24,000 bases of DNA from Gaiellaceae bacterium (GCA_050011315.1 JBEKJI010000026.1:12991-36990); one strand, 5' to 3'. Counted from the first letter of the stretch, positions 4,964-19,997 are shown. A program made the numbers and translations. Notes: a model not told the origin generated them from the letters alone.

Positions 4964-5570
4964 ATCGTCCGTACACGTCTGGCGAGCCGACCTCACGGCC
5001 GCCGATGACGGCGTCGGCGAGTTCCTCTCGGCGGACGAGCGCGTGCGCGCACAACGCTTCGTCTTCGCAAGAGATCGCGAGCGGTGGGTGCGGGCGCGAG
5101 GGATCTTACGAGCGCTGCTTGGTCGCTATCTCGACCTCGATGCGAAAACGCTGAGCTTCACCTCCGGGCCGAACGGAAAGCCGGTTCTGCTCTCGGAATC
5201 GGTGAGCCTTCACTTCAACCTTTCCCATTCGGGAGACCTGGCGCTGTACGCGTTCGCAAGATTCCCAGTGGGAGTCGACGTCGAGGTCGCACGGCCGGGA
5301 ATCGACGCGGTCGCGCTGGCCGAGCGAGCGCTCGGCAGCGACGAGGCCGAGCGGCTGCGGCGGCTGCCGGCCGGCGAACGCGAGCGAGAGTTCCTGCGTG
5401 CCTGGGTGCGCCACGAGGCCTCGCTCAAGTGCCGCGGCAGCGGGCTCGGCACGCGCGCCGATGTGAGCGGGCTGTGGCTCGCCGACGTGGACGTCGGTCC
5501 CGGCGCGGCCGCGGCCGCCGCTCTTGACGGGACGCCGGAAGAGCTCTGTCTCTGGGATTGGTGTGCCTGA
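4905..5570 (+). CDS. Sfp-type 4'-phosphopantetheinyl transferase
   Basis: VHVWRADL, SGPNGKPVL, FNLSHSGDLALYAF, VGVDVE, FLRAWVRHEASLKCRG (W..K/HEA..K). ATG 4905 overlaps the NRPS 3' end by 59 nt, and no later canonical start precedes the conserved N-terminus. Confidence 0.85.
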   Translation: MNETKSHHWKLPPKRLQLAESSVHVWRADLTAADDGVGEFLSADERVRAQRFVFARDRERWVRARGILRALLGRYLDLDAKTLSFTSGPNGKPVLLSESVSLHFNLSHSGDLALYAFARFPVGVDVEVARPGIDAVALAERALGSDEAERLRRLPAGEREREFLRAWVRHEASLKCRGSGLGTRADVSGLWLADVDVGPGAAAAAALDGTPEELCLWDWCA

Positions 5571-5616
5571 CGGATCTTCGTTCGCTCGAGCCCTCTGGAG
5601 CGGGCAACGGAGAGGA

Positions 5617-5845
5617 GCGCCGTTTTCGTTTGGCCCGTTGGCGCGCATACTCGGCACGAAGCCGGCACATGTTCGAGCGTCTTTCCTCGATACCGTGCTA
5701 CGCCCCGTGGGAGGGTTGTTAGAGCGCCAAGCGAAACGAAGCACTCCATCGCCTGGCCGCGCTCGGCGGCGCGATACTGCGTCCTCGGTCGCGCCCGTAG
5801 CCTACGGGTCTTCATTCCGCTTGGCGCTCTGGGGAGGAGGGCGGA
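5617..5845 (+). repeat. Copy A of a modular hairpin-rich intergenic element (unclassified)
   Basis: 5650-5842 aligns by eye nearly base-for-base with 16872-17118. Hairpins at 5652-5664, 5673-5690 and 5794-5808. A 13/13-bp long-range helix pairs 5721-5733 with 5819-5831. It ends in GGGGAGGAGG (5831-5840). Confidence 0.8.
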
Positions 5846-5852
5846 TTAGCGA

Positions 5853-5865
5853 AGTGCCAGGCACT
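5853..5865. promoter_or_regulatory. Perfect 13-bp palindrome AGTGCC-A-GGCACT, 20 nt upstream of the xerC-like ATG; a possible operator
   Basis: Read directly from the sequence. The function is inferred from position only. Confidence 0.25.
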
Positions 5866-5884
5866 CCAAGAAGCGCCGGCGAAG

Positions 5885-6802
5885 ATGCGCCGAGACGCAC
5901 GGCGTCCTCTTTCGCCGAGCGGGATTCCCACGCAGACGGCGAATCAGCCGGAAGTGGATCTCAACCGGACCATCGACCGCTTCCTAGACTCGCCCTCCTT
6001 CTCGGCGGCGACGAGGCGCGCCTACCACATCGACCTGGAAGAGTTCGCCGGTTTCCTGGGTCGGAAAGGCGCGACTCTGGAACAGGTGGACGGTCGCCTG
6101 CTCGCCCTCTACGCCAGTGAGCTCGCCGCCGCCCGCCCCGGACGGCAGCCGCGACGGCTCTCGGAACGAACGATCGCGCGCAAGCTGGCCGCGGTGCGCG
6201 GGCTGATCGGCTTCGCGCTTGGCCCCGCGCGGGTACCCGAGCTGGCGCTGAAACCACGTCGCTCGCGCCACCTACCCGAGACTCCGCGGCCGGACGAGAT
6301 CGACGAGCTCCTACGAGCGAGCGAGGGGAAAGGCCCGCTCGCACTCCGTAATCGCGCCCTGCTCGAGCTGGTCTACTCGGCCGGGCTGCGCAGCGCCGAG
6401 GCGGTCGGGCTCGACCTGGCCGACGTGGACTTCGAGAGCGAGACCGTGCACGTGCGCGGCAAGGGCGGCAAGGAACGTGTCGTGCCACTGGGCGAAGAGG
6501 CGGCCGCCTGGGCAGGGCGCTACCTGCACGAGGCCCGCCCCGCGCTCGCCCGTGGCGCCGAGGATGCCTTCTTCCTCTCCGCGAGTGGACGCCGCCTCGA
6601 CACGAGCACGCTACGCCGCCTCGTCCGCCACCCGCACCGCCTGCGCCACGCCTTCGCCACGCACCTGCTCGAGGGCGGCGCCGACCTGCGCGTGATCCAG
6701 GAGTTGCTCGGGCACAGCTCGCTCTCGACCACCCAGGTCTACAGCCACGTCGACGCGCGCCGGCTCAGACGCGTCTACGACCGAGCGCATCCGAGATCCT
6801 GA
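5885..6802 (+). CDS. xerC: Tyrosine recombinase, XerC/XerD family (XerC-like)
   Basis: All catalytic residues are present: AGLRSAE (Arg), [10 protein letters not shown] (Lys), [12 protein letters not shown] (His, Arg), [16 protein letters not shown] (His, Tyr). The start is uncertain (ATG 5885, or in-frame GTG 5954). The segment before HxxR is shorter than in typical XerC. The C-versus-D assignment is tentative. Confidence 0.8.
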
Positions 6803-6879
6803 TCCGCGAAGTCCGCCTCCCGCCGCCGCTAACGAGGCGAGGAAGAAACGCTCCGTAGGCGGCGAAAGAAGAAAGTCCG

Positions 6880-7776
6880 ATGGAACGAGAAGTCGAAGGC
6901 TTTCTCGCCTTACTCGCCGCGCGCCGTTCGCGGCAGACTGTCGATGCCTATCGCCGCGATCTCGCGGACGCCGCCCGGGTGCTCGAGAAGCCTTTACAGG
7001 CAGTCTCGACCGACGACCTCGAGCGCTACCTGGCCGATCTGCGCTCGCGCGGCCTGGCGGCGGCTACGGTGGCGCGCCGGCTTGCCTCGCTGCGCTCCTT
7101 CTACCGCCATCTCGTTCTCGTCGGGGCGCGTGGCGACAACCCGGCCGCCGAGCTGAGGCCACCGCGGCGACAGCGGCATCTTCCCCACCCACTCTCGCCG
7201 GCCGAGGCCGAGCGCCTGATCGAGGCGGCCGCCGGCGTTACGCCGCGCGATCTGCGTGACCGGGCGCTGGTGGAACTTCTCTACGGCGCCGGGCTGCGCG
7301 TGAGTGAGGCAACCGGACTCGAGCGGGCCGGTGTCGATCTCGAGAGCCGGATCGTGCGCTGCCTGGGCAAGGGCGACAAGGAGCGAATCGTCCCGATCGG
7401 GCGCCAGGCGGTCGAGGCGCTGACTCGCTACCTGGCGCGCGGGCGCCCCTATCTCGAGCGCCGTCTCCGTCCCGAGCTCTTTCTCAACGCCCGCGGCGGT
7501 GCGTTGACCCGAGCCGGCGCCTTCCTGATCCTGCGCCGCCTGGCCGAGGTCGCCGGGCTCGAGCCCGAGCGCATCCATCCCCACCTGCTCCGCCACTCCT
7601 TCGCCACGCATCTGCTCGAGGGCGGCGCCGACCTGCGCAGCGTTCAGGAGATGCTCGGCCACGCCGATCTCTCCACCACCGAGCTCTACACCCACGTCTC
7701 CGACCAGCGCCGGCGCGAGACCTACTTCCGCGCCCATCCGCATGCCAAGCGGCGCACGAAGCTGACAAGTCACTAG
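6880..7776 (+). CDS. xerD: Tyrosine recombinase XerD-like
   Basis: AGLRVSEA, GKGDKERIVPIG, FLNARGGALTRAGAF (XerD-type), [40 protein letters not shown] purine-rich tract (gaaagaagaaag) lies upstream of the ATG. Confidence 0.85.
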   Translation: MEREVEGFLALLAARRSRQTVDAYRRDLADAARVLEKPLQAVSTDDLERYLADLRSRGLAAATVARRLASLRSFYRHLVLVGARGDNPAAELRPPRRQRHLPHPLSPAEAERLIEAAAGVTPRDLRDRALVELLYGAGLRVSEATGLERAGVDLESRIVRCLGKGDKERIVPIGRQAVEALTRYLARGRPYLERRLRPELFLNARGGALTRAGAFLILRRLAEVAGLEPERIHPHLLRHSFATHLLEGGADLRSVQEMLGHADLSTTELYTHVSDQRRRETYFRAHPHAKRRTKLTSH

Positions 7777-7789
7777 GGGTGAACAGCGC

Positions 7790-7905
7790 ATTCAGATTCT
7801 CTGGGTCGCTAGCACCAAGCGATGCTAGGACGCAGGGAGCGTTCGTAGCGGCGCTACGGACGCGACTGAGGACAACGCAGCGCGCCGCGTGATAGCGGGC
7901 CAGAG
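7790..7905 (-). repeat. Copy C: inverted 3'-half copy of the intergenic element
   Basis: The reverse complement of 7790-7905 aligns with 16972-17075 of copy B (tctggcc, cgctgcgttgtcctcRgtcg, tccgtagc..gctacgaa, ctgcgtcctagcatcgc, cRacccag) and with 5752-5831 of copy A. The hairpin is at 7844-7858. Confidence 0.7.
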
Positions 7906-8045
7906 CAGGAGATGCTCGGCCACGCCGACCTCTCCACTCCGAGCTCTACACCCACGTCTCCGACCAGCGCCGGCGCGAGACCTACTTCCGCGCCCACCCG
8001 CACGCACGGCGCAGGTCCGCGCCTGCGGCCAAGAAAGTCCACTAG
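7906..8045 (+). pseudogene. Displaced duplicate of the xerD 3' end (frameshifted, no 5' part)
   Basis: 7906-8045 matches 7645-7776. The first ~106 nt differ by only 3 substitutions plus one cac->tc change that removes 1 nt. The tails diverge with 3-nt indels, and both end in cactag. With the 1-nt loss corrected, it would read ..EMLGHADLST.ELYTHVSDQRRRETYFRAHPHARRRSAPAAKKVH*. Confidence 0.75.
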
Positions 8046-11349: not shown

Positions 11350-11720
11350 AAGGAAACGGCGATAAAGCCCTGACCATCGAGACGCTCGATAACCGCTTCC
11401 GCGAACGGCCCTACGAGGTCGAGCTAGAGGCGCTCGAGTTCACCTCGCTCTGCCCGCTCACCGGCGCCCCCGACTTCGGTGTCCTCGTCATCCGCTACGT
11501 GCCGGACGCCTCCCTGCTCGAGCTGAAGTCGCTCAGGGACTACCTGACCTCGTTCCGCGAGCGCAAGATCCTCCAGGAGGAGGTCGTCAACGCCGTGCTG
11601 GACGAGATCGTCCGCTCGTCGTCCCCGCGCTTCGCCGAGGTCGAAGGCATCTTCAACGTTCGTGGCGGAATCGAGGCGCGAGTAAGGGCCCAGATGGGAG
11701 AGAATCCCCTCGATGATTAG
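11346..11720 (+). CDS. queF: NADPH-dependent 7-cyano-7-deazaguanine (preQ0) reductase, unimodular type
   Basis: EFTSLCPLTGAPDF (catalytic Cys) and ELKSLRDYL (QueF motif). The TTG start at 11346 overlaps the upstream TGA as TTGA. Confidence 0.85.
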   Translation: MKGNGDKALTIETLDNRFRERPYEVELEALEFTSLCPLTGAPDFGVLVIRYVPDASLLELKSLRDYLTSFRERKILQEEVVNAVLDEIVRSSSPRFAEVEGIFNVRGGIEARVRAQMGENPLDD

Positions 11721-11775
11721 AGCTCGTTTCGAAACGAAGCGCTCCGCCGGCTGGGCCGTCATTTGAAACGAGCTC
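11720..11775 (+). repeat. Copy D: short module of the intergenic element, with an 11-bp inverted repeat and a 12-bp palindrome
   Basis: gagctcgtttc (11720-11730) is the exact reverse complement of gaaacgagctc (11765-11775). CGTTTCGAAACG lies at 11725-11736. gaaacgaagcgctccgccg (11731-11749) matches the motif found in copies A and B. Confidence 0.65.
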
Positions 11776-15527: not shown

Positions 15528-16811
15528 ATGAACGACTGGATCGAGCGCGACGAGACCCGCGTCTGGCACGGCTTCACCCAGATGGCGACCTTCGCCCTGA
15601 ACGAGCCCGTGATCGTCGAGCGAGCCGAGGGACGCGAGCTGATCGACACGGAGGGGCGCCGCTACCTGGATGCGATCTCCTCGCTCTGGGTGACGACGCT
15701 CGGCCACCACGTGCCCGAGCTCGACGCCGCCCTCACCGCGCAGCTCGGCAGGGTCGCCCACACGACTATGCTCGGACACGGCAACCGAGCCGCGGTCGAG
15801 CTCTCTGAGGCGCTCGCCCGGGTGGTGCCGGTCGCAGACCCGCACTTTCTCTTCGCCTCCGACGGCGCCTCGGCCGTCGAGCAGGCGCTCAAATGCGCCG
15901 TCCAGTACTGGCGCAATATCGGGCTCGAAGAGAAGTCCGGCTTTCTGGCGCTGCGCGACGCCTACCACGGCGACACGATCGGAGCTCTCTCGCTCGGGGA
16001 AGGCTTCCACAGCGAGCACTTCGATCTGCTTCGCTTCCCGGTGCTGCGCGCCGGCGGCTACGCGAGCCCCGGCTGGGCCGAGGAGGCCTGCAGCCTGGTT
16101 GCCGCCAACGCCGAGCGACTGGCCGCGGTCGTGATCGAGCCGCTTGTGCAGGCGGCCGGAGGCATGTGGATCGGCCGTCCCGAGGACGTGCGCATGCTCG
16201 CAGAGAGCTGCCGCGAGAACAGGGTGCTGCTCGTCTGCGATGAAGTGGCGACCGGTTTCGGGCGCACGGGTAGCCTCTTCGCCAGCCGGCGCTGCGGCAT
16301 TCAGCCCGACCTACTCGTGCTGGGCAAGGGCATCACCGGCGGCTACTTGCCGATGTCGGCGACGGTGGCGAGCGGTCGCGTCTATACCGCCTTCATGGGT
16401 GAGGACCTGGGCCCACGCACCTTTTACCACGGCCACTCCTACGGAGGGAACGCGCTCGCGGCCGCCGTCGCTTCGAGACATCTCGAGCTGCTCGCGGAGT
16501 GGAACGTGCTCGCGAACGTCGAGGCGCGCTCGGAGGAGCTGCGACAGCTCCTCGACGAGCGGATCGCTCCGCTGGCGCAAGTGGCGGACGTGCGCCTGTG
16601 CGGGCTGCTTGGCGGTATCGAGCTGAAGCCCCACATCGACGCCCGTGCGGTCTGCGCCGAGGCGGTTAGGAACGGAGTTCTCCTGCGATCTCTTGGCCAG
16701 GTCGTCCCGGTGGTGCCGCCGCTGACGATCACGAGCGAAGAGCTGGAGCGAATAGTCTCGGTGCTGGAACAGGCGCTCGCCGCCGTCAGCGAGAATAGCT
16801 TCGATGCTTAA
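15528..16811 (+). CDS. bioA: Adenosylmethionine-8-amino-7-oxononanoate aminotransferase
   Basis: VWHGFTQM, DEVATGFGRTGSLFA, LGKGITGGYLPMSAT (PLP Lys), YHGHSYGGN, and the bio cluster context. Confidence 0.9.
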   Translation: MNDWIERDETRVWHGFTQMATFALNEPVIVERAEGRELIDTEGRRYLDAISSLWVTTLGHHVPELDAALTAQLGRVAHTTMLGHGNRAAVELSEALARVVPVADPHFLFASDGASAVEQALKCAVQYWRNIGLEEKSGFLALRDAYHGDTIGALSLGEGFHSEHFDLLRFPVLRAGGYASPGWAEEACSLVAANAERLAAVVIEPLVQAAGGMWIGRPEDVRMLAESCRENRVLLVCDEVATGFGRTGSLFASRRCGIQPDLLVLGKGITGGYLPMSATVASGRVYTAFMGEDLGPRTFYHGHSYGGNALAAAVASRHLELLAEWNVLANVEARSEELRQLLDERIAPLAQVADVRLCGLLGGIELKPHIDARAVCAEAVRNGVLLRSLGQVVPVVPPLTITSEELERIVSVLEQALAAVSENSFDA

Positions 16812-17118
16812 TCGCTCGTTTCGAAACGCGGCACTCCGCCGCCCGAGTGCGCGCGGTGGTACAACGCTGAATCGGCACGAAGCCGGCACGTTTTCGAGTG
16901 CGTTTTCTCGATACCGTGTTACGCCCCGTGGGTGGGTTGCTAAGAGCCAAGCGAAACGAAGCACTCCACCGTCTGGCCGCGCTCGGCAAGCACGCTGCGT
17001 TGTCCTCGGTCGTATCCGTAGCCTCCAGCTACGAATCCGGCGCTGCGTCCTAGCATCGCACTCACCGATCGCACCCAGTCGGCGAGTCTTCATCCCGCTT
17101 GGCACTCGGGGAGGAGAG
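16812..17118 (+). repeat. Copy B of the modular hairpin-rich intergenic element, filling the bioA-bioB gap
   Basis: Palindrome CGTTTCGAAACG at 16817-16828. The motif occurs at 16823-16841 and 16953-16971. Hairpins at 16873-16885, 16894-16911 and 17017-17033. The closing helix pairs 16946-16953 with 17096-17103. It ends in GGGGAGGAG (17108-17116). Confidence 0.8.
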
Positions 17119-17191
17119 ATGGGTCCCGCCGCTTCGCGGAACCACGAGGAGTCTCGGATAAGACCGAACGCTTCCCGTAGCGGGCGGAGGA

Positions 17192-19997
<2,806 letters not shown>

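Follow-up and report, generated by a model that had tools for sequence, protein, structure and literature searches.

The IS200/IS605 and REPIN/RAYT systems propagate by a single-stranded DNA (ssDNA) route (PMC3116915, PMC6006769), and in the spacers of REPINs a part of the stem is free in sequence and is kept paired by compensatory changes (PMC3116915). ERIC (IRU) elements of enterobacteria are imperfect palindromes of 127 nucleotides (nt) and up, found at transcribed intergenic sites and occasionally within genes, with copies that differ by insertions and deletions (indels) and with orientation-dependent effects on mRNA (PMC10969869). Correia (NEMIS) elements of Neisseria are small, palindromic, intergenic and co-transcribed, their paired ends are substrates of RNase III and they can bring promoters; once transcribed, the Correia and the ERIC hairpins are attacked in the mRNA by RNase III and RNase E (PMC10969869). 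Pneumococcal BOX/RUP/SPRITE clusters and the palindromic elements (RPE) of Rickettsia are modular, and their elements insert into one another (PMC10969869). Here we analyse a stretch of 24,000 nt from a Gaiellaceae bacterium (GCA_050011315.1, JBEKJI010000026.1:12991-36990), called the window below, in which an earlier inspection made without database searches (the sequence-only reading) had pointed to an unclassified hairpin-rich element at 5617-5845 with further copies. The observation was confirmed and its interpretation partly supported: the region carries members of two families of small non-coding repeats, previously undescribed, the hairpin element H and the G-rich element X.

The locus probably consists of two nested kinds of dispersed repeat from Gaiellales-type Actinomycetota, neither of them autonomous or coding, which would propagate through ssDNA; H and X are most likely selfish mobile DNA of the MITE (miniature inverted-repeat transposable element), REPIN or ERIC kind and not regulatory RNA. 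Their dispersal, copy number, turnover, nesting, deletions that preserve the ends, lack of coding and unrelated neighbours argue for such repeats and against regulatory RNA. Unusual features are the mutual nesting of the two families, the variable yet paired outermost stem of H, and the asymmetry in folding between its sense and antisense strands.

Distribution of H and X

Within the window, blastn aligns two long copies, A and B, over 5644-5803 and 16865-17024 (83% over 161 nt, E = 6e-39) and over 5808-5839 and 17086-17116 (91%). A single scan of 185,579 species-representative genomes with the 20-nt pattern CGAAACGAAGCRCTCCRYCG returned 94 loci, against an estimated chance expectation of about 9. 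About 60 of these are true copies, with long flanking homology to the element of the window, and almost all of them belong to Gaiellaceae, Gaiellales, Thermoleophilia and unclassified "Actinomycetota bacterium" metagenome-assembled genomes (MAGs) from fen, palsa and peat. Motif loci per MAG number 11 at the maximum, then 7, 7, 5, 4 and fewer, and a profile search of the motif loci yielded about 90 non-overlapping H copies and fragments. We examined 8-kb flanks around the motif matches (about 1.1 Mb overall), as well as about 27 close bioB relatives with flanks, obtained by a protein-guided bioB scan of metagenome contigs; the comparison loci and contigs carry L-numbers (L003, L061, L111 etc.). 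Neither a full-text literature search (for Gaiellales repeats and for the motif strings) nor a BLAST search of 16865-17150 against plasmid and phage collections gave any match.

The same elements are carried by independent assemblies (ENA, Logan, JGI, GenBank MAGs). The window overlaps one ENA metagenome contig, which starts at window position 5646, exactly at the left edge of copy A, and one Logan contig, which starts inside copy B (~17043); these assemblies thus break at a repeat. Contig ends inside H or X were also seen at the start of L097 and at the ends of L011, L013, L050, L054 and L079. A full, high-scoring H lies near the end of a 348-kb contig binned as Gemmatimonadales (L017, CAWDZR010000029.1, 648-812), which could be a chimeric end, a misbinning or a cross-phylum transfer.

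Structure and strand asymmetry of H

H is a palindrome of about 166 nt with some 30 bp of pairing between its two ends. An outer arm of 10 nt, GARCnnnnnn, is followed by a conserved interior, CGAAACGAAGCACTCC...CGTAGCC-loop-GGCTACG...GGGTCTTCATTCCG, and by a complementary arm nnnnnnGYTC; the termini read GARCnnnnnnCGAAAC...CATTCCGnnnnnnGYTC. The closing stem P1 comprises 10 bp that are free in sequence yet complementary, and inward of it come conserved stems with fixed mismatches and a conserved apical module. Except for GARC...GYTC, the outermost 10 nt vary, with 27 distinct versions of P1 in the 40 full copies of our alignment (A1), which includes the hairpin of copy B (H-B) and for which the named structure has 48 pairs. 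Many copies occur without X, often alone where the stop codon of one gene meets the start codon of the following one, and the indels in the alignment are not multiples of three. Internally deleted copies that keep both ends were found in the window (11720-11775) and in L064, L096 and L006 (5572-5650).

Covariation in the 40 copies indicates that the structure is under selection. Of 1912 cells 91% are paired, compared with 29-41% when the 3' partners are slid by 1-3 columns; cells with double (compensatory) changes number 147 versus 13-34 in the slid controls, and none of 500 shuffles reaches the observed values of pairing or compensation. Changes on both sides occur in 20 of the named pairs. 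Most of the signal comes from the closing stem, e.g. columns 7/182 (GC 18, UA 14, CG 4) and 10/179 (UA 17, AU 11, GC 5, CG 2), and the stem flanking the apical hairpin covaries as well (GTCGCG/CGCGAC, GCCTCG/CGAGGC, GTCTCG/CGAGAC). A compensated difference in P1 also separates L003 and L092, orthologous copies with shared flanks that lie upstream of a tRNA-Met-like sequence (by eye it looks like tRNA-Met with anticodon CAT). Compared with shuffled sequences, the whole regions of the window show no excess of folding (z -0.9 and -0.55), and the isolated hairpin modules fold far better (z -4.4 to -7.4). The idea that the variable bases of P1 are a copy of, or a guide to, the target site was not supported: the same target (X) holds different P1 sequences, and the longest word shared by a rebuilt target and its own P1 is 4.0 against 3.75 for permuted pairs, with 13 of 500 permutations as high.

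The two strands of H are not equivalent. Each of the 40 copies folds better on the strand antisense to its neighbouring genes, by about 30 kcal/mol on average (mean minimum free energy -103.7 versus -73.7 kcal/mol). In the window this holds for the minus strand of H-B (-93.9 kcal/mol, z -7.4; plus strand -67.1, z -4.5) and that of the hairpin of copy A, H-A (-66.9 kcal/mol, z -6.9; plus strand -56.8, z -4.4). Mismatches of the sense strand within the named structure are A·C or C·A in 199 cases and G·T or T·G in 26, and the complement of the former is a wobble pair. Copies C and D of the window (see below) share the asymmetry of H-A and H-B, the z-scores of copy C being -4.5 on the plus and -3.35 on the minus strand. 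Deamination biases linked to transcription and replication would push in the opposite direction, and we thus read the asymmetry as selection on the master lineage.

Between co-directional genes, H is co-oriented with its neighbours in 14 cases and opposed in one (binomial p 0.001), with further opposed cases in L111, L022 and L051; for X the counts at the genome loci are 14 and 0, with one opposed event at bioB/bioD. Because of this bias, host mRNAs usually hold the weaker, mismatch-interrupted hairpin. The neighbouring genes are unrelated to one another (biotin genes, queF, a short-chain dehydrogenase (SDR) gene, xerC, tRNA-Met, hemW), and many H copies lie downstream of genes or between convergent genes. 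One full H (L051, CAVXWH010000001.1, 6017-6183) sits in frame inside a 477-aa radical-SAM hemW/hemN-like open reading frame (ORF; 5145..6578), where it adds about 55 residues, with no stop codon, between ...FARVEPG and RHNLGYW...; here the sense strand is the strong folder. The case resembles the insertions of the Rickettsia RPE; the ORF could instead be a pseudogene.

These results bear on several claims of the sequence-only reading. Two of its helices, the long-range closing helix (5722-5731 with 5820-5829) and the cgtagc/gctacg stem termed H3, hold throughout the family, and the compensatory changes, which it had suggested looking for, are in clear excess. Its rule that stems are conserved while loops vary is half right, as no part varies more in sequence than the closing stem, which yet remains paired. 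The strand it described is not the better folder: the complement, antisense to the flanking genes, folds best, which argues against a cis-regulatory RNA on the sense strand.

The G-rich element X

X is about 125 nt long, G-rich and without a conserved fold. It begins with a direct repeat YGGCAC-N5-YGGCAC, its left boundary being set by an alignment of 26 copies, and continues through CGATACCGT, CCCCGTGGGWGGGT and a G-run to ...GGCGCCC..ACTCCGAGAAG; it has no terminal inverted repeat beyond GGCAC/GTGCC. Many sites carry X without H, and its indels are not multiples of three. A G-quadruplex-type run GGGWGGGTGGGGGGWGGNGGG is present on the plus strand of 12 of 21 hairpin-less copies (strict G3-N1-7 rule), e.g. 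at 4745-4770 in L114. In copies A and B the hairpin sits in this G-run, between GGGT and GGGG, and splits it exactly within (5705-5716 plus 5831-5844 in the window). Conversely, X or the X+H composite can occupy the apex of another H.

Two functional assignments of X were tried and discarded. As a structured RNA it gives an RNAalifold consensus of only -5.5 kcal/mol with one covarying pair. As a sigma-54 promoter, its CGGCAC-N5-CGGCAC shows GG-N10-GC in some copies and the -12 GC is unconserved; to our knowledge, Actinobacteria generally lack sigma-54.

Copies in the window

The window contains the following parts of the two families, X-A and X-B being the X elements of copies A and B.

5644..5716 (+): 5' module of X-A, CGGCAC-N5-CGGCAC, then CGATACCGT and CCCCGTGGGAGGGT
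5722..5829 (+): H-A, inside X-A; P1 GAGCGCCAAG (5722-5731) pairs with CTTGGCGCTC (5820-5829)
5830..5878 (+): tail of X-A, G-run GGGGAGGAGGGCGG, then ATTAGCGAAGTGCC...ACTCCAAGAAGCGCC; found by the X profile (nhmmer) at 5831-5875
7799..7905 (-): copy C, a complete short relative of H, with the H central module and its own closing stem CTCTGGGTCGCTA/TAGCGGGCCAGAG
11720..11775 (+): copy D, a mini-H with the interior deleted, GAGCTCGTTT-CGAAACG...CATTTG-AAACGAGCTC, i.e. P1 plus the ends of P2
16812..16867 (+): 5' half of an outer H, TCGCTCGTTT-CGAAACGCGGCACTCC...GCTGA, directly after the bioA stop codon and broken by X-B
16865..16937 (+): 5' module of X-B (nhmmer 16868-16937, E = 2.5e-16)
16942..17107 (+): H-B, a full-length hairpin in X-B; P1 AAGAGCCAAG pairs with CTTGGCACTC (nhmmer E = 5e-49)
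17108..17157 (+): tail of X-B, GGGGAGGAGAGATGGGTCCCGCC...AACCACGAGGAGTC, aligned with the tails of L066 and L093
17208..17241 (+): 3' half of the outer H, AGAGTCGAC...TCGTATTCCG-AAATGAGCAC, within the called bioB ORF

In copy A, nhmmer with a hairpin-less X profile finds the 5' module at 5647-5716 (E = 6e-17), the similarity to copy B beginning at 5644, and the H profile matches 5721-5806 (E = 6e-23). The roughly 60 nt of copy B that are absent from copy A correspond, in the family alignment, to a 57-nt deletion at the apex of H-A. The tail of X-A ends 6 nt ahead of the start codon of the xerC-like gene (5885). Just upstream of copy A, at 5608-5643, CGTTTTCGTTTGGCCCGTTGGCGCGC resembles by eye the reverse-complemented 5' end of H (CTTCGTTTCG-CTTGGCGCTC); the profile search did not report it, and it may be a degenerate inverted fragment.

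Copy C (blastn 75% over 102 nt; nhmmer model positions 47-119, E = 8e-13) lies between the stop codon of the xerD-like gene (7776) and a duplicate of the 3' end of that gene (7906-8044), and an element of its type recurs at L006 1634-1905 with another element nested in it. The duplicated 3' end includes the stop codon (7645-7776 and 7906-8044); the two versions share 97% identity over their first ~100 nt and then diverge. Copy C sits exactly between the two ends and abuts the second at 7906, and the duplication may be the footprint of insertion repair near the end of the gene. The two tandem tyrosine-recombinase genes (5885-7776) are 42% identical to each other, and in the close relative L061 only the first is present at the corresponding place. 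The first base of copy D is the last base of the queF stop codon (11718-11720), and the gene that follows, an SDR, has its called TTG start (11763) inside copy D; the mini copies L064, L096 and L006 5572-5650 resemble it. Short relatives in the window were found at 11717-11754 and 16809-16846.

The bioA/bioB junction of the window thus has three layers, an outer H split by an X that carries an inner H. The 5' half of the outer H is found by nhmmer at 16815-16868, and its 3' half matches the H 3' consensus CAGTCGACGGGTCTTCATTCCG plus the P1 arm that pairs with 16814-16821. The order "5' half of H, then X" is also seen in L042, L066, L006 and about ten bio-operon relatives (L102-L121).

As to the sequence-only reading, its long copies 5650-5842 and 16872-17118, in the same orientation, correspond to 5644-5839 and 16865-17116, and its motif gaaacgNNgcRctccRYcg does occur four times in the window. 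The inverted copy that it placed at 7790-7905 is real and nearly right in span, the complete short relative at 7799-7905 replacing the supposed 3' half; likewise 11720-11775 is a copy, not of a 5' module only, and is a complete mini-element with both termini. Two small hairpins it had named belong to X: about 19 of 21 X copies retain H1, for the most part with G·U pairs and with no compensatory support, and H2 is not conserved in the family. It was generally right to regard similar peptides across the copies as artefacts of a nucleotide repeat, the exception being the N-terminus of BioB, which the element supplies here. Dispersed copies in relatives and empty bio junctions were found where it had proposed to look for them. 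Finally, its cautious choice between a structured RNA, an ssDNA-folding element and a MITE-like repeat of no known family stands, there being no Rfam family and many dispersed copies. The single modular element it envisaged gives way to at least two independent families, H and X, each found alone elsewhere, with a third layer at bioA/bioB.

Gain and loss at gene junctions

Comparison of the same junctions in close relatives shows that both families turn over and repeatedly hit the same places. At bioA/bioB the window carries outer H, X and inner H (430 nt). Among the ~27 bioB relatives, 14 have genes that overlap by 34-49 nt and no element, and 11 have the outer H and X without the inner H (X without the inner H is seen e.g. 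in L102, L104 and L121). The inner H is found only in the window among these relatives, with L097 unscorable, and L111 has a full H in the opposite orientation no more than 3 nt from the insertion point of the window. The bioF/bioH junction, empty in the window, carries X alone in 8 relatives and X+H in L107 and L118; at bioB/bioD a GTGA overlap in the window corresponds to an inverted X plus an H remnant in 4 relatives. Since presence and absence differ at the same junctions in close relatives, H and X must have been gained and lost there.

At the cleanest comparisons no clear target-site duplication was seen, the alleles being 85-98% relatives, not isogenic, with blurred junctions. In L111 versus L105 the insert lies between CTGA and GAC and nothing is duplicated; H within X in L107/L118, compared with L113/L114, shows no duplication either, and at bioA/bioB of the window there is only a loose resemblance TAATCGC/TGAGTCGC at the junction. 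Exact-protein look-ups with queF and xerC returned contigs of the same strain only, hence copies A and D have no empty sites for comparison.

The insertions rewrite the ends of genes. In the window bioA has gained a new stop codon, and X-tail and outer-H sequence makes up the first ~17 codons of the called bioB ORF; relatives that lack the insertion align to BioB only from residue 14-18. An ATG in the 3' arm of the outer H (17234-17236) is in frame with bioB. As the bioB start (17192-17241) and the SDR start (11763) fall inside repeats, the annotation of start codons is unreliable there. In L124, which has no insertion, the C-terminus of BioA is 98% identical to that of the window and BioB is 86% identical, which suggests recombination at or near this junction.

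Probable propagation as selfish DNA

A stem free in sequence yet paired, conserved interior stems and fixed mismatches are expected if a protein recognises the folded single strand. We propose that H would be propagated in trans by such an enzyme, not encoded by H itself. The active strand would be the one antisense to most host genes, on which each fixed mismatch is a G·T wobble, and insertion would proceed without obvious target duplication, as for ssDNA elements of the IS200/IS605 or REPIN/RAYT type. Copies would survive mainly at gene boundaries, in the orientation that places the weakened, A·C-interrupted hairpin in the mRNA, and would rebuild the stop and start codons they displace (bioA/bioB, queF and SDR, the start-like AAATGAG of the 3' arm). 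Asymmetry and orientation bias can be reconciled if propagation requires the antisense strand to fold, whereas in operons only those insertions survive that give the transcript the weakened hairpin; an A·C in place of a G·U is the only class of substitution that satisfies both strand constraints.

Measured against known mobile classes, H and X agree with MITEs in being small (<~300 bp), non-coding and multi-copy, and no fixed-length direct target duplication was found in the compared, non-isogenic alleles. H shares with REPINs a long hairpin with compensatory changes, in a different layout (conserved interior, variable outer stem). From the strand specificity and the absence of target duplications we infer, with no enzyme found, that H would move by an ssDNA route like that of IS200/IS605 or REPIN/RAYT. 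A Pfam scan of the window genes showed no RAYT or HUH protein; ORFs near the other copies were not screened for HUH. The half-elements L006, L015, L036, L069, L076 and L094 were considered as an ORF-bearing autonomous version and turned out to be deletions or nests.

Several points weigh against this explanation. The ~1.1 Mb of flanks yielded no transposase or other mobilising enzyme and no longer, autonomous version with the same ends, and the mechanism of mobility is therefore inferred. The missing target duplication, which fits an ssDNA (HUH) route, fails the classic definition of a MITE. Many wobble positions are fixed in the H consensus, so that the 199:26 asymmetry rests on about 6-10 independent positions plus singletons. 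The orientation counts come from a GC3-based gene caller (G+C at third codon positions), a crude heuristic, and include orthologous, non-independent copies. A bias of about 14:1 is too strong for replication-coupled insertion alone; to account for it, either selection acting on the mRNA or some host function is required. Lastly, all genomes compared are MAGs, and the copy totals refer to these.

A bolder version, to which we give rather little credence, makes H a new kind of hairpin transposon under opposing constraints: the antisense strand would be mobilised as a near-perfect 75-bp rod, while the A·C mismatches of the sense strand would keep the mRNA translatable and resistant to double-strand RNases. 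H would land at translationally coupled junctions and rebuild stop and start codons, so that coupling survives a 166-nt insertion, with the G-quadruplex-type run of X as its preferred landing pad.

Thermoleophilia and Gaiellales, abundant members of peat and soil communities, are almost uncultured, and no repeat families have been described in them. H and X break assemblies, create spurious ORFs and false start calls (bioB) and rewrite gene ends at operon junctions; as their presence differs among close relatives, they can also be used as strain markers. If the reading of the strand asymmetry is true, sequence alone reveals a selfish hairpin reconciled with transcription, and the data would point to an ssDNA transposition system in a clade with none known.

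Alternative explanations

Of the competing explanations, the one that survives best, though we think it unlikely, is a host-exapted intercistronic module, in which H in the sense mRNA keeps translational coupling across the insertion: P1 would bring the upstream stop codon next to the start codon or Shine-Dalgarno sequence of the 3' arm, the terminating ribosome would melt P1 and free the start, and X would provide a movable leader or promoter in which a G-rich stretch binds the ribosome. H does lie flush between stop and start, with the stop codon at most 6 nt from the 5' arm in about 12 of 19 copies not nested in X. The 3' arm often reads AAATGAG, its ATG being kept at the cost of a C·T mismatch (columns 9/180 are unpaired in 16 of 40 copies) and serving in frame as the bioB start in the window. 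Mini-ORFs of 2-3 codons end on the next start in L052 (ATGAGTTAATG) and L060 (GTGAGTTCATGA), insertions split genes that overlap in relatives, the orientation bias is strong, and X, in which GGAGG and a conserved TACCGT are found, stops 6-20 nt short of start codons. Yet this support comes from a handful of junctions, the variable presence of the elements among close relatives makes the module dispensable, and a function of the sense RNA does not predict that the antisense strand folds better. Scans for sigma-70-type promoters found none, and X lacks a conserved RNA fold.

Still less probable is a trans-acting or cis-regulatory structured RNA family (H or X+H) with a host function. The strong pair covariation, the conserved internal loops, the folding of isolated hairpins far beyond shuffles and the conservation of sequence across an order-level clade would all suit it. 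Against this, the flanking genes belong to no common class (others occur besides those named above), and H copies outside X leave no room for a promoter or terminator. Neither signal was found: no intrinsic terminator was predicted on either strand of 5500-5950 and 16750-17250, and the 3' arm of H is followed by G-runs or start codons, not by a T-run. The copies show truncation, nesting and polymorphism, the strand that folds better runs antisense to the host operons, and the pattern expected of a riboswitch or leader, i.e. a sense position upstream of one functional class of genes, was not observed. Rfam gave no match in the whole window at gathering thresholds, and at E <= 10 returned only noise for 5560-5900 and 16790-17200 (e.g. 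mir-3132, 15-16 bits versus a gathering score of 84).

We give hardly any weight to the possibility that the hairpins are attC-like or Xer-type recombination sites of the adjacent xerC/xerD-like recombinases. The sites of attC type act as single-strand hairpins in which structure matters more than sequence. In addition, copy A immediately precedes the xerC-like gene, copy C immediately follows the xerD-like one, beside its duplicated 3' end, and L061 also has X+H upstream of the xerC homologue. On the other hand, tblastn with both recombinases hits only the window and L061 among all loci examined, 2 of about 95, leaving about 90 other copies with no recombinase nearby, and we also rejected a general link to these genes. 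The two proteins, at 42% identity, look like an ordinary adjacent XerC/XerD pair, which we take them to be. No R''/R' core sites (RYYYAAC...GTTRRRY) are present at the ends of H, and the dispersed copies are flanked by housekeeping genes, not by cassettes.

A chance resemblance, or an artefact of assembly limited to this contig, for which one could cite only the high G+C content that inflates hairpin counts and the non-significant z-scores of whole regions, is refuted by the E-value of 6e-39 within the window and by the independent assemblies that carry the same elements.

Comparison with described repeats

H resembles REPIN/RAYT and IS200/IS605 elements in being non-coding, intergenic and multi-copy, with two inverted halves that form a long hairpin. 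With REPINs it further shares a sequence-free stem kept paired by compensatory changes, strand-specific folding, the lack of an obvious target duplication and an enzyme that would act in trans. It differs from them in being two to three times longer (166 nt), in having a conserved inside and a variable outermost stem, the reverse of a REPIN, and in lacking a short REP with a conserved 5' tetranucleotide. No RAYT/TnpA gene was seen in the examined sequence, which was screened in the window genes only, and the host clade, Thermoleophilia, is outside those described for REPINs.

With ERIC/IRU elements H has in common the imperfect palindrome, transcribed intergenic sites, indel copies and occasional intragenic copies. 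There is no sequence similarity and the phylum is another one; the termini of ERIC are conserved in sequence, unlike the closing stem of H, and ERIC elements do not nest with a second family. Correia elements are likewise small palindromic intergenic repeats, the RNase III and promoter features being theirs; they end in conserved inverted repeats of 26 bp and duplicate a TA target, and H does neither.

The modular build and the mutual insertion recall BOX/RUP/SPRITE clusters and RPE, with which there is no sequence relationship. As with RPE, H can lie in frame inside a gene (the hemW-like ORF of L051) and contribute residues (the N-terminus of BioB), although RPE encode a conserved peptide and H apparently does not. 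Finally, mycobacterial MIRUs are repeats between the genes of operons, in one orientation, that overlap the flanking stop and start codons, and consist of 40-100 bp tandem minisatellite units with small ORFs. They are not long hairpins, but they share with the present elements an actinobacterial host, the position at operon junctions, the single orientation and the overlap with stop and start codons.

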